A stretch of 64,000 bases of DNA. It comes from Gammaproteobacteria bacterium. Lineage in GTDB: Bacteria; Pseudomonadota; Gammaproteobacteria; UBA4575. The stretch spans positions 352,001 through 416,000 of the forward strand of contig CBDCUI010000008.1 in assembly GCA_965222615.1 (NCBI GenBank). Direction: 5' to 3'. The position numbers and the translations under genes were made by a program. Shown here piece after piece: positions 22,207-36,656 of this stretch. The notes beneath the pieces are model-generated. The model had not been told where the DNA came from and did not search any database. It was given only the letters and a program-made list of their open reading frames with translations. Every line of letters starts with the position of its first letter. Within the stretch, counting starts at the first letter, position 1.

Positions 22207-23067
22207 ATGAGCAAAAATAATAATATTCTGGCTCTTGTGGCTACATCTAAATATCTATTTCTAATTGAACTCGATAGTGGTGTAAAAAAAATAATTAATG
22301 ATAAATATGGGTTATTTTACGGGATTACTTGGGATAAGCATTTTATTTATGTTGCTGTTCGGTGGTATCCATCACTTATTCCAACATCGCGTATCGAAAG
22401 GCCGAGACTTCTAGTTTTTGATTACAATTTTAAGCTTCAAAATTGTCAAAGCTTTGAGATAGATGCTGGTGGACTACATCAAATTACCTACTTTGATAGC
22501 AAGCTATATTGTTCATGCTCAAGAGATGATAGTTTTATTGTAAAAGAAAATAATGAATGGCATATATGGTATCCGTCAAATTATATTGAACATCATAATA
22601 AAGATACACACCATTTTAATTCTATTTGGTTTAATGAAGGTAAGTTATTTGTTGTTGGACACAATAATGGCCCAAGTGATGTATGGGAGTTTTCATATCC
22701 AGATTTAACTATCAAGAATAAATTTCGCATAGGTACGCATATACATAACGTGTGGAAAGAAAATGATGTTTTGACTGTTTGTAATTCAGGGAGAGGAAGA
22801 ATAGAGACAGTAGAGAATCAAGTAATTTGCGAAACAGGAGGATTTCCCAGAGGTGTTGCCATAGGTGACGATATCAACCTGGTAGGTGTATCTGATATTG
22901 CTAATCGTAGTAACCGTTGGTTAACTAATGGCAAAGTTAATATTTACTCAAAAGATTGGAGGATACTGGATAGCTTGGATTTAGGAAAATGTGGCCAAGT
23001 TTTGGAAATTAGATTACTTGCAAATGATTGGGCGCATAACAGTGAGTTCAATGTTTCTCAAGCATAA
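22207..23067 (+). CDS. Hypothetical probable beta-propeller protein
   Basis: Repeating beta-blade-like segments (YGITWD..IYV, LHQI..F..KLY, HFNSIWF...LFV, IHNVW, FPRGVAI); AT-rich. Confidence 0.6.
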   Translation: MSKNNNILALVATSKYLFLIELDSGVKKIINDKYGLFYGITWDKHFIYVAVRWYPSLIPTSRIERPRLLVFDYNFKLQNCQSFEIDAGGLHQITYFDSKLYCSCSRDDSFIVKENNEWHIWYPSNYIEHHNKDTHHFNSIWFNEGKLFVVGHNNGPSDVWEFSYPDLTIKNKFRIGTHIHNVWKENDVLTVCNSGRGRIETVENQVICETGGFPRGVAIGDDINLVGVSDIANRSNRWLTNGKVNIYSKDWRILDSLDLGKCGQVLEIRLLANDWAHNSEFNVSQA

Positions 23068-23140
23068 TCTTTTTCAAACTAGCATTGAGTGCTATCACTT
23101 CAAACCATATTAATTTCAGCTTGAGAACTATAATAATTGA

Positions 23141-24100
23141 ATGATACAAATTGAATCGTTAAGTAATTGGTATACGCGCAGCCATATTAAATATGCTGCT
23201 AGTAGTGTATGGATTTTAGCAGTTCTTATATTTGTGGTTATGTATCTTTCAAAAAATTACCGTCAAATATCACAATATCAATGGGATTTAAATATATATT
23301 GGCTTTTTTTAGCATTTATACTAGCAATGTTACGAAGGCTTGTAGCCGCATTTAGATGGGCAATAATACTGAACTATAGTGAATCGAAGGCTATGTTACC
23401 AAGTACTATTTCTTGCTTTAAGCCTTTTTTTTATTCGAATCTTGCGAATTACATTCCAGGCAGCATTTGGGCGGTAGCAAGTCGGATTGAGTTAACACGG
23501 AGGCAGGGAATACCAATTAAGCAGAGTGCATTTAGCATGGCATATGAGTTAGGACTTAATTTAGTTCTAGGGTTAGCTGTAGGGATCTATGCTTTATTAA
23601 AATTTACTTCTTTTAATTATTCATCTGTAGCATTAATTAGCATTAGTATTGTGTTACTAACGACGTTGTTGATTTATCCAAAGATATGGAATGTTTTATT
23701 TAACATTTTATCTAATGTGTTTGGCTTAGATATTCCAAAAATAGAGGTTTATCCAACAAAGAACTTCGTTCTGTGGCTAGTATCCATTAGTACTTGGTTA
23801 TTAGGCGGTATTAGCCTATTTTGTCTTGTGAAGGCAGTCTATTTAGTTTTTCCATGGTCCCAATTCATACTGCTTATTTCGGCTTCAGCACTAGGGTGGA
23901 CAGCAGGATTTTTAGCAGTTTGGGCACCTTCCGGCCTTGGTGTACGTGAAGGGGTAACTGTTGGCTTGTTATTGAATGTTATTCCAGAATTAATCTTGGT
24001 TGCAGTTGTAATAGTAGATAGATTACTGATGTTATTAGTCGATTTAATATGGGCTGGTATTTTTATGCTTGGATCGGAATCATTTGATGGTGCACTTTGA
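23141..24100 (+). CDS. UPF0104 / lysylphosphatidylglycerol-synthase-TM family membrane protein (putative flippase)
   Basis: Multi-TM; RW, NLANYIPG, PSGLGVREG, DRLL motifs. Confidence 0.8.
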   Translation: MIQIESLSNWYTRSHIKYAASSVWILAVLIFVVMYLSKNYRQISQYQWDLNIYWLFLAFILAMLRRLVAAFRWAIILNYSESKAMLPSTISCFKPFFYSNLANYIPGSIWAVASRIELTRRQGIPIKQSAFSMAYELGLNLVLGLAVGIYALLKFTSFNYSSVALISISIVLLTTLLIYPKIWNVLFNILSNVFGLDIPKIEVYPTKNFVLWLVSISTWLLGGISLFCLVKAVYLVFPWSQFILLISASALGWTAGFLAVWAPSGLGVREGVTVGLLLNVIPELILVAVVIVDRLLMLLVDLIWAGIFMLGSESFDGAL

Positions 24101-24116
24101 ATTGGAACTCGCCATG

Positions 24117-25028
24117 TTAATTCTTAGGTGATAAGGCAAAAGCGGCAAATCTCTCTATGGCTGCTAAAGGTAATTTTATGTTGGGTTTTGTTTTGCCTTT
24201 CCATAAAACTCCAAATATATCATTGGATAAAATTAATTTTAAGGGGCTAAGGCTAACAATTTCAAGTACTTTGCCTGCAAGACCTAAAAAAGCTGGATAT
24301 ATAGTATCTCTATTGTCACCGTATTTATCTTTGCCTTGATTCCAACGAGCTTGGGCAGGCATAAATTGTTCTAGCCATAGGCGTTGCTTTAATCCACAGT
24401 TTTCTATTGTTTGATAAAGCATAGGAATATCTTGCTCATTAATGTGAATTTTTTTTTCTGATTCACTACGAGGCTCTTTTGGGAATTTTTTGTTGACAAG
24501 ATTAAGCATTGGGAATGTTATATCGTAAACCCATCGATTAGGTAATGTATGTATTATTGCGTACCCATCAGTTTTTAGAACACGACGAACTTCGAGGAGC
24601 ATAGATTCTAATTGATTGGGTAGTAAGTGCTCAATAATGTCTAGCATTGTGATTCTGTCAAAGCTATTATCAGCAAAAGGTAAACTGCATGCATCGCTAC
24701 GTATTAATTCGATGTTAAATGAAACGCTACTTTTTTTACTTCTGACATGAGTAAGTTTTTTTGCAAAATCAAGGGCTGCAAAAGAATAATCAAGACCAAT
24801 TGCATCTGCACCTCTTTCAGCAGCAAGCAGTGGCATTTCACCTCTGCCACATGCAATATCTAATAGCTTTAGTTTAGGACTTACATTGGCAAGCTCAAGT
24901 GCACGAACAAGACGTGGTCGGGCTACTAGTGTATCCTGTTCAAGTAATTCTTTGTTTGCCTTACTCCCCCATGCTGAAGCCAACCATGCTTTATCATAAA
25001 CATCAGATTTTACTGGTTTTTGATTCAT
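24117..25028 (-). CDS. Class I SAM-dependent methyltransferase
   Basis: LLDIACGRG, GLDYS, DACSLPFADNSFD, IIEHL, RVLK..G. Confidence 0.9.
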   Translation of the reverse strand: MNQKPVKSDVYDKAWLASAWGSKANKELLEQDTLVARPRLVRALELANVSPKLKLLDIACGRGEMPLLAAERGADAIGLDYSFAALDFAKKLTHVRSKKSSVSFNIELIRSDACSLPFADNSFDRITMLDIIEHLLPNQLESMLLEVRRVLKTDGYAIIHTLPNRWVYDITFPMLNLVNKKFPKEPRSESEKKIHINEQDIPMLYQTIENCGLKQRLWLEQFMPAQARWNQGKDKYGDNRDTIYPAFLGLAGKVLEIVSLSPLKLILSNDIFGVLWKGKTKPNIKLPLAAIERFAAFALSPKN

Positions 25029-36107: not shown

Positions 36108-36126
36108 GAGGTTTAGTAATAGGAAT

Positions 36127-36160
36127 AAAAAAAGCGCCCTAATAAATTAGGGCGCTTTTT
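36127..36160 (-). terminator. Intrinsic terminator after pilA
   Basis: AAAAAAAGCGCCCTAAT-aa-ATTAGGGCGCTTTTT. Confidence 0.88.
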
Positions 36161-36200
36161 AAATTTCGAATTTCAATAAAAATTGAAATTCAAACTAGAT

Positions 36201-36656
36201 TTATACTCTGCAATCAGCAGGTAGGAATCTTGAAGGTATTGGCTGTGCAGCACCTGGTACGCAATCCCAATCTACATTTTGGCCTGGAGCACCAGAACCT
36301 TGCATATCAATGGTATCACTTGCTGCTACACCTCCGCCAATAGCAGTTGTGCTTGCAGCAACGGTAAGTACCGCACTGTTCGCGCTTGGCTTATTATAAG
36401 TAAGAACACTCACATACTTACTACCAACACGGGTGTTGAATCCTGCTGTAGCAGCAGTAGCTGGCATACTACCTTGAGAAATGAAAAACTCAGAAATAGA
36501 GGTTTTAGCAGGCGCCATTGCATTGACTACTTCAGTTACTTTTGCGCGAGTGGTGTAATCCTGGTATGCAGGAATAGCAATCGCAGCTAAGATACCGATG
36601 ATCGCTACCACAATCATTAATTCGATTAAGGTAAAACCTTTTTGCATTTTTTTCAT
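36201..36656 (-). CDS. pilA: Type IVa major pilin
   Basis: [35 protein letters not shown]-terminal disulfide loop WDC...LPADC; AGGAG RBS favours the ATG at 36656. Confidence 0.96.

Follow-up and report, generated by a model that had tools for sequence, protein, structure and literature searches.

The 64,000-nt stretch analysed here (the window; positions 352,001 to 416,000 of contig CBDCUI010000008.1, from a gammaproteobacterium of the GTDB lineage UBA4575) carries, between the type IV pilus genes pilA and pilB, a segment (22207-36674) that is probably a pilin O-glycosylation island using a lipid-monophosphate sugar donor and resembling TfpW of Pseudomonas aeruginosa in design. As judged from sequence and predicted structure, the pilin gene is followed by a GT-C membrane glycosyltransferase with a tetratricopeptide repeat (TPR) tail, a GT2 lipid-sugar synthase and a set of putative sugar-decorating enzymes. 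The TfpW-like design is known; what appears new is the GT2-coupled form, in which the GT-C comes with a lipid-sugar synthase of its own and a decoration cassette that can be exchanged. Proteins of the window were assigned to families with Pfam and NCBIfam, and the features are as follows, with the flanking pil genes last.

36201-36674, minus strand: pilA, major type IVa pilin (prepilin); Pfam Pilin 54.4 bits, N_methyl 40.7 bits; likely start ATG at 36655.
36129-36160, minus strand: terminator-like hairpin between the pilA stop and the GT-C start; 14 pairs (6 G-C), loop of 4, T-run.
34137-36107, minus strand: predicted GT-C membrane glycosyltransferase (656 aa) with TPR tail; from structure prediction.
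33186-34058, minus strand: GT2 polyprenyl-phosphate glycosyltransferase of the GtrB/ArnC/DPMS type; PF00535 108.7 bits.
32097-33173, minus strand: DUF354 protein, soluble; PF04007 51.2 bits.
30242-32095, minus strand: glutamine-dependent amidotransferase of the asparagine synthase type; Asn_synthase 198.9 bits, GATase_7 148.1 bits.
29061-30245, minus strand: predicted (alpha/alpha)6-barrel protein, 394 aa, of a family with no Pfam model; from an AF2 model and Foldseek.
28275-29057, minus strand: class I S-adenosylmethionine (SAM) methyltransferase MT1; Methyltransf_11 81.8 bits.
27285-28238, minus strand: class I SAM methyltransferase MT2; Methyltransf_23 58.8 bits, Methyltransf_11 57.7 bits.
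25083-27266, minus strand: bi-domain oxidoreductase (zinc-ADH-like plus GFO/IDH/MocA); GFO_IDH_MocA 77.9 bits, ADH_zinc_N 42.3 bits.
24117-25028, minus strand: class I SAM methyltransferase MT3; Methyltransf_11 72.8 bits.
23141-24100, plus strand: UPF0104 / LPG_synthase_TM polytopic membrane protein; PF03706 58.1 bits.
22207-23067, plus strand: DUF4915/TIGR03032-like soluble protein; DUF4915 27.2 bits, below the cut-off of 35.
17919-21785, minus strand: pilB, pilC and pilD (flank); T2SSE 509.8 bits, T2SSF 233.9 bits, Peptidase_A24.
37013-39993, minus strand: pilR and pilS (flank); Sigma54_activat 234.5 bits, 6TM_PilS 123.5 bits.

Nine genes lie behind pilA on its strand, with intergenic gaps of -4 to 93 nt, the 93 nt separating pilA from the GT-C gene; two genes on the opposite strand follow. 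The island has a G+C content of 36.0%, compared with 41.0% in the rest of the window, and is the lowest-G+C 13.9-kb stretch in the whole 64 kb. An earlier note, made by a model from the letters alone, had placed eleven genes here in an AT-rich block free of a PglL/TfpO-type enzyme, an initiating transferase, Wzx or Wzy. All its coordinates were confirmed, as was the AT-richness, and neither Pfam nor NCBIfam detected Wzy_C/PglL, Bac_transf, a WecA-type initiating transferase, Wzx (Polysacc_synt) or Wzy among the 12 island proteins. Three Wzy_C matches were found in the window's genome, all outside the window.

The 656-aa protein encoded next to pilA matched no Pfam or NCBIfam family at E<=0.01, and the PMT, PMT_2 and DUF1736 models were unmatched. 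PMT_2 was seen only in more distant Atlas clusters, and some database sources name relatives 'protein O-mannosyl-transferase'. We folded the protein with AF2 from a 20-sequence alignment (A1), obtaining a model with a pLDDT of 88.2 and a pTM of 0.87. Foldseek with the whole model was dominated by matches to TPR proteins, with Pmt4 at rank 33, so a fold search independent of Foldseek was needed and VIA-align was run over 48,161 chains. Its top six matches were all GT-C enzymes: AglB (Z 18.0), Pmt1-Pmt2 (17.0), ALG12 (17.0), Pmt4 (16.6), STT3B (15.3) and ArnT (15.1). Each aligned over 310-339 residues (AglB 318, Pmt2 339) within residues 1-527, five of them within 1-475. PglB (Z 12.9) and mycobacterial Aft enzymes came next. 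The membrane part spans residues ~1-430 and the TPR domain ~430-656 (profile matches at ~430-640, and Foldseek), and in searches of the GT-C profile against sequences of solved structures TPR proteins were the only matches. Residues D35-D36, in the local motif D35-D36-H37, are invariant in all 20 sequences of A1 and from the fold would be periplasmic; the stretch YEHRNYLP (Y363-x6-P370) is likewise present in 20/20. The model bears out the earlier note's label of GT-C, which neither Pfam nor NCBIfam supports, and places a TPR domain at the C terminus of the enzyme.

The adjacent GT2 protein had AglJ as its best NCBIfam match (131 bits, cut-off 325), followed by PpgS, dolichyl-phosphate hexose transferase, PgfS and ArnC. 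Its best sequence matches in the PDB were ArnC (1.9e-16), DPMS and GtrB. A simple hydropathy scan found C-terminal hydrophobic segments at 214-232 and 253-277 of its 290 residues. With a GT-A domain, curated and solved relatives of this kind and two C-terminal hydrophobic segments, its sequence identifies it as a lipid-monophosphate sugar synthase of the GtrB/ArnC/DPMS type. The earlier note's proposal of a polyprenol-phosphate GT2 thus agrees with the PF00535 match and with the top ranking of polyprenyl-phosphate glycosyltransferases in both NCBIfam and the PDB.

Next, the linkage of these genes to the pilin gene was studied. The GT-C was matched in 15 of 41 relatives' genomes, its own included; eight relatives with long contigs were compared and six with short or cut contigs were left out. 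In all eight loci the order pilR-pilA-GT-C-GT2-[variable genes]-pilB was kept. A profile-guided scan of species-representative genomes matched at least 646 of 648 stretches, and 76 gamma- and betaproteobacterial loci were kept among the matches listed. In these a pilin gene lay directly upstream of the GT-C in 68/76, and in five of the eight misses the contig broke off less than 700 nt from the GT-C. A GT2 homologue (>=45% identity) was present in 62/76, directly after the last GT-C in 47, and eight of the 14 loci without one have less than 500 nt left past the GT-C. On this comparative evidence, pilA, the GT-C gene and the GT2 gene are a conserved core. More distant GT-C relatives (25-42% identity; Omnitrophota, Nitrospirota and others) had a pilin-like open reading frame (ORF) nearby in only 5/76 cases and a GT2 in 1/76, indicating that the pilin link is a property of this clade and not of the fold. 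A single-protein locus search returned only such distant, mostly pilin-unlinked relatives. Further loci from the order holding Zooshikella had a pilin gene followed by a GT-C in 4/4 cases, at ~32-42% G+C.

The GT-C profile matched 123 of 400 genomes sampled from the class (E<=1e-10), a tally that takes in three genomes flagged as unpublished (G063, G165 and G319), and 107 of the 348 high-quality ones. In the order holding Zooshikella, 90 of 401 genomes were matched, as were 12,655 cluster representatives among 1.84 billion at E<=1e-30. In 22 of the 76 loci (L101, L102, L122, L138, L143, L145 and others) two or three tandem TPR-bearing GT-C copies stand behind one pilin gene, sometimes behind two tandem pilin genes. 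GT-C copies broken by several stops were found in two class genomes (G068:C1:1406558-1407892 and G199:C6:171951-173685; loci L256, L257, L261, L262, L264 and L265), indicating that the module decays in some lineages.

The pilin and the GT-C also diverge together. Close relatives share 65-88% identity with the window in the neighbouring genes, but only 38-40% in the GT-C and 42-69% in pilA. Within the GT-C the transmembrane (TM) domain retains 43-47% identity and the TPR domain 24-27%. We compared the variable part of the pilin with the other proteins across 48 loci (1128 pairs). Pilin similarity correlated with that of the TPR domain at r 0.54, of the TM domain at 0.36 and of GT2 at 0.22. The partial correlation of pilin and TPR given GT2 was 0.50, a value reached by 0 of 999 label permutations, whilst that of pilin and GT2 given TPR was -0.03. 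As the TPR domain is encoded farther from pilA than the TM domain, plain linkage would predict the opposite order of correlations. Since pilin divergence tracks the TPR domain and not GT2, we read the TPR domain as a likely recogniser of the pilin. The tie between island and pilin proposed in the earlier note is hence borne out by the close loci, the wider loci and the co-variation alike.

Downstream of this core lies a cassette of putative decorating enzymes. A hydropathy scan found no hydrophobic segment in any of its decorating proteins, DUF354 included, so they should act in the cytoplasm. The amidotransferase matched TIGR01536 at 410 bits and the XrtA/PEP-CTERM amidotransferase model at 384 bits, below its cut-off of 816.9, and we propose that it may amidate a sugar carboxylate. 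DUF354 proteins have been predicted to be glycosyltransferase-like with unconserved catalytic residues, in the parts of the source available (PMC4520260), and the island member is possibly a GT-B-like sugar enzyme; it had no sequence match in the PDB, even with a 28-sequence profile. The AF2 model of the 394-aa protein (pLDDT 95.3) is an (alpha/alpha)6 barrel. Its top Foldseek matches were glucose 2-epimerase (8h1l) and cellobiose 2-epimerase (5zhb), at E ~1e-7 and TM ~0.6, with AGE also matched, and GH76 and GH88/GH105 hydrolases scored nearly equal to the epimerases. Residues H265 and H320 are invariant in 37 sequences, and the sole Pfam match, C5-epim_C, is sub-threshold (20 bits, cut-off 23.3). 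The model suggests a carbohydrate epimerase- or hydrolase-like protein, which may serve as an epimerase or as a trimming enzyme.

The UPF0104 protein has about eight hydrophobic segments and matches the TIGR00374 flippase-like domain at 37.2 bits, below the cut-off of 43.2. With a home-made UPF0104 profile, it was found in 33 of 46 long loci of the cassette type built on GT2, DUF354, amidotransferase and barrel genes (the tetrad), compared with 9 of 33 long GT-C loci in general. It also lies downstream of the tetrad in two cassettes unlinked to pil genes. It was assigned to the system in the earlier note and does travel with this cassette type; its co-occurrence makes it a candidate flippase of the lipid-linked sugar. 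The DUF4915-like protein was labelled a beta-propeller in the earlier note; its only matches were the sub-threshold ones to DUF4915/TIGR03032, with no PDB sequence match and no named Protein Atlas cluster. It recurs in a few cassettes of the tetrad type, with homologues of 38-59% identity in L188, L201, L216 and L242. No usable match came from searching solved-structure sequences with the barrel protein, DUF354, UPF0104 or the DUF4915-like protein.

To follow the cassette itself, loci were collected with the barrel protein, giving 80, of which the 66 at >=50% identity were used for counts. The tetrad was contiguous in 45/66 and its last three genes in 55/66; a pil gene or GT-C was present in 47/66. 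The window's gene order was kept through the oxidoreductase in nine of the 66. Hosts included gammaproteobacteria, Burkholderiales, Desulfobulbaceae and, as metagenome-assembled genomes, one Nitrospinaceae and one Planctomycetota. Among cultured carriers are Zooshikella ganghwensis DSM 15267, whose locus L213 runs pilA-GT-C-GT2-DUF354-amidotransferase-barrel, Desulfogranum japonicum DSM 18378 (L246) and, with the minimal pilA-GT-C-GT2 core, Undibacterium and Dokdonella strains.

Other gene sets occupy the same pilA-pilB site in relatives. A relative of the same genus has a methyltransferase, UPF0104 and a GT4; another has a Wzx-like protein, a sulfotransferase, GT4s and an amidotransferase; a third has a radical SAM protein, methyltransferases and UPF0104. 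The term 'exchangeable cassette' used in the earlier note is thus a fair one. Families were scanned in the wider loci for 139 of 250 ORFs, from 26 of 43 loci. GT4s followed GT2 in 19 of the 26, and the flippase candidates were Wzx-like in four, UPF0104 in three and GtrA in one (L135). No initiating phosphoglycosyltransferase (Bac_transf, WecA-type) or Wzy_C was matched among the 12 + 39 + 139 + 24 + 36 proteins scanned. Sulfotransferase genes in several pilin-linked cassettes (L093, L106, L112 and L212) suggest that pilin glycans may be sulfated in some lineages. At the same site, locus L095 (G007:C2:970400-990399) holds at 1261-11061, behind DUF354 and an amidotransferase, a full nonulosonic-acid route with PseB/PseC-like proteins, two NeuB, a cytidylyltransferase, a PseG-like protein and a formyltransferase.

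We compared the island with known systems, and found the earlier note's 'undescribed' to be too strong. A preprint places the gene of TfpW, the pilin D-arabinofuranosyltransferase of P. aeruginosa group IV strains (Pa5196/PA7), downstream of pilA. It describes a protein of ~11 TM segments whose TPR domain lies in the periplasm and whose first periplasmic loop bears a DDx motif, and which was modelled on ArnT; tfpW-like genes adjoining pilA are reported there in several species (10.1101/2020.04.19.049825). The island GT-C shares, on that description, the published architecture: the place behind pilA, the multi-pass GT-C with a TPR tail and the DDx motif. The donor type, a lipid-monophosphate sugar, would also be shared. 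TfpW is supplied with lipid-phosphate D-Araf via DPPR synthase, DprE1 and DprE2 (10.1101/2020.04.19.049825), whereas the island has an adjacent GtrB-type GT2. The island further differs from the described system in its multi-gene decoration cassette and attached UPF0104 gene, and no tfpX-like gene was recognised in it. The window's own genome, which is 99.79% complete, has no match to the ALO domain (PF04030), which we take to be carried by DprE1. ALO-domain ORFs were present in each of five large genomes from the order holding Zooshikella, in no case near the GT-C on the same contig. Weak A1 matches in five class genomes, considered as TfpW candidates, proved to be decayed copies or pilin-unlinked paralogues, and the TfpW candidates in the order holding Zooshikella (four GT-C loci compared) were pilin-GT-C proteins of the present family.

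The design is also analogous to a three-component Gtr/Arn pathway aimed at protein and to a bacterial counterpart of PMT/TMTC O-mannosylation. In GtrA/GtrB/Gtr* and ArnC/ArnEF/ArnT systems, as outlined in the available text, a GT2 polyprenyl-phosphate sugar synthase and a flippase serve a GT-C acting outside the cytoplasm (PMC11127046). The island likewise combines a GT2, whose best solved relatives are ArnC, DPMS and GtrB, with a flippase candidate and a GT-C. Those systems, as outlined, act on O-antigen or lipid A, whereas the acceptor of the island would be a protein, its GT-C has a TPR domain and there are extra cytoplasmic decorating enzymes. Pfam gave no GtrA_DPMS_TM or EamA-type (ArnE/F) match in the island, leaving UPF0104 as the only flippase candidate. 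TMTCs are described as having 11 TM segments and a lumenal TPR domain (PMC7801869). They and the protein O-mannosyltransferases (PMTs) are GT-C enzymes that move a lipid-phosphate-linked sugar to Ser/Thr, and the structural search ranked Pmt1-Pmt2 and Pmt4 near the top for the island GT-C. The island differs in being bacterial and pilin-linked, with a variable sugar cassette and no Pfam PMT, PMT_2 or DUF1736 match.

In the Agl system of Haloferax, which uses dolichyl monophosphate, and the Pgf system of Streptococcus mutans, a sugar loaded on a lipid phosphate is modified or lengthened on the cytoplasmic side; after flipping, a GT-C passes it on to protein. AglJ is the best NCBIfam match of the island GT2 and PgfS also matches, all far below equivalog cut-offs; the island linkage, unlike theirs, would be O-linked to pilin, and other Agl or Pgf proteins are absent. 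The island is also unlike the PglL/TfpO systems, which glycosylate pilin from undecaprenyl diphosphate, in having no Wzy_C oligosaccharyltransferase, initiating phosphoglycosyltransferase or Wzx. The cyanobacterial pilin glycosyltransferase Ogt was considered as a relative and rejected, being a cytoplasmic GT41 and unrelated. Searches of the available literature turned up no paper on a GT2-coupled, pilin-linked GT-C system.

Taken together, these comparisons suggest a pathway in four steps. The GT2, whose enzyme class is assigned by its family matches, would act at the cytoplasmic face, using a nucleotide sugar to charge undecaprenyl phosphate with a sugar. DUF354, the amidotransferase, the barrel protein, the three SAM methyltransferases and the oxidoreductase may then decorate this sugar or its nucleotide precursor in the cytoplasm. 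The likeliest product would be an amidated and methylated sugar of the uronic-acid type, one residue longer if DUF354 is a glycosyltransferase. UPF0104, as its co-occurrence suggests, may flip the lipid-linked product. Finally, the GT-C, whose fold and motif match such a role, would transfer it in the periplasm to Ser/Thr of PilA, an acceptor suggested by linkage and co-variation, with the TPR domain recognising the pilin. We infer the order of loading, extension, oxidation, amidation, methylation and flipping, and the product may be a single decorated sugar or an oligosaccharide. The hairpin behind pilA is terminator-like and fits the partial-terminator arrangement of pilin accessory genes, in which, as far as the available text describes it, a terminator follows pilin genes that have such accessory genes (PMC11841053). 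It could throttle read-through into the island and would hold the enzymes far below the level of the pilin.

Several observations weigh against a pathway of this kind. Gene linkage to pilA is no proof that pilin is the acceptor, and the co-variation test is confounded, and its figures inflated, by relatedness and by neighbouring genes recombining together. Nineteen of the 66 cassette loci have no pil gene in reach, about half of these on short contigs and ~8 with long flanks. Five loci (L183, L185, L187, L189 and L193) lack a GT-C and have GT2-DUF354-amidotransferase-barrel immediately behind pilA; all their other ORFs belong to Pfam families (GT4, GT9, FkbM methyltransferase, pyruvyl transferase, Wzx-like and UPF0104). 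The cassette is thus not strictly tied to this GT-C or to pili. All 21 NCBIfam matches of the GT2 fall below their equivalog cut-offs and its sugar is not named for that reason. The UPF0104 gene stands on the opposite strand, and its glycolipid flippase role is one by association. The proline-rich TfpW motif YX6PFX7P, which the preprint prints as standing ahead of the TPR domain, occurs in 0/20 A1 sequences, the island GT-C having only Y363-x6-P370 at the matching place. ORF calling in the other loci was mechanical, and we chose the thresholds for matching ourselves.

It is unlikely that undecaprenyl diphosphate instead carries the growing glycan, assembled by an initiating transferase whose gene lies elsewhere, with the GT-C acting as an oligosaccharyltransferase and the GT2 adding only a periplasmic branch sugar. 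The oligosaccharyltransferase AglB is indeed the best structural match, within 1 Z unit of the PMTs, and the GT4s (19/26) and Wzx-like flippases (4/26) of related loci, like tandem GT-C copies that could divide transfer and branching, would suit such a scheme. The window, however, has one GT-C and no GT4, Wzx or initiating transferase by Pfam and NCBIfam, Bac_transf or WecA-type matches are absent from every cassette scanned, and no other gene accompanies the GT-C as constantly as the GT2, at 52-63% identity. An only slightly less improbable reading is that of a general periplasmic O-glycosylation system, with many envelope proteins as substrates of the GT-C, the pilin being either one among them or a mere neighbour. 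PglL-type and actinobacterial PMT systems are broad, TPR domains are able to bind many partners, and the wider GT-C family is very large and mostly unlinked to pilins. Set against this are the tight, clade-specific adjacency to pilA, the co-variation of the TPR domain with the pilin and the extreme divergence of the GT-C along with pilA whilst its neighbours are conserved.

The pilA-pilB site could also be a recombination hot spot that has received a Gtr/Arn-like system decorating lipopolysaccharide, capsule or another non-protein polymer, a reading we consider very unlikely. Synthase, flippase and GT-C together are the classic design of O-antigen and lipid A modification, according to the available text (PMC11127046). 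The island is AT-richer than its flanks and some cassettes lie outside pil loci, in keeping with such an origin. A hot spot would nevertheless leave unexplained why the GT-C stands directly behind pilA in both beta- and gammaproteobacteria and why pilin and TPR domain co-vary, and the cassettes scanned showed no genes for polysaccharide export. Gtr and ArnT enzymes are not known to carry a TPR tail. Pilin O-glycosylation from a lipid monophosphate hence seems the best account of the island.

Pilin glycosylation is described almost only for PglL/TfpO-type enzymes and the single case of TfpW. A module of TfpW-like GT-C, own lipid-sugar synthase and interchangeable decoration cassettes, present in about three in ten of the sampled class genomes, would, if borne out, make a second route common and not an oddity of one Pseudomonas lineage. 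We tentatively suggest a still broader scheme, which is possible but on balance doubtful. Here a widespread second bacterial route of pilin O-glycosylation would start its glycan with a GtrB-type GT2. The glycan would be decorated and, in many lineages, extended by cytoplasmic glycosyltransferases on undecaprenyl monophosphate, a logic of archaeal Agl systems not known in bacteria. UPF0104 or Wzx-like proteins would then flip it, and a TMTC/PMT-like GT-C, which recognises the pilin through its TPR domain, would transfer it en bloc. The triad of DUF354, amidotransferase and (alpha/alpha)6 protein would make an undescribed sugar chemistry, and swapped cassettes would diversify the pilus surface against phages.

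Type IV pili have major roles as receptors for phages, as adhesins and as antigens. Swapping of the cassette behind an invariant pilA-GT-C-GT2 core among lineages would vary the pilus surface, and masking of pili from phage may be supposed by analogy to P. aeruginosa, for which the available part of one study gives a precedent (10.1101/150227). If the main reading of the island holds, functions would follow for DUF354, for the (alpha/alpha)6 family lacking a Pfam model and for stand-alone UPF0104 proteins, and glycoengineering would gain a compact O-glycosylation tool of possibly two to four genes. A term search of the available text of a 2025 review of bacterial O-glycosylation returned no TfpW, GT-C, polyprenol, Pmt or undecaprenyl phosphate, suggesting that this branch is little studied.

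We also checked the surroundings of the island. A sigma-54 promoter upstream of pilA was sought by eye and none is claimed, and scans of the 64 kb returned no tRNA genes or Rfam matches. A single G+C peak stands out in the window, reaching 54.8% at 51-52 kb, and lies in a gene for a Peripla_BP_6 periplasmic binding protein (50983-52332, minus strand). Among the sequencing runs listed as holding this DNA none was of RNA; contigs from four runs cover the stretch, those of X4 and X5 only in part. In run X1, one contig links position 22040 to 36974, skipping or replacing the entire segment of pilA and island, at a depth of 30.7, near that of the main form. With only 24 letters on its shorter side, the contig hints no more than weakly that the sample holds a second allele of the region.

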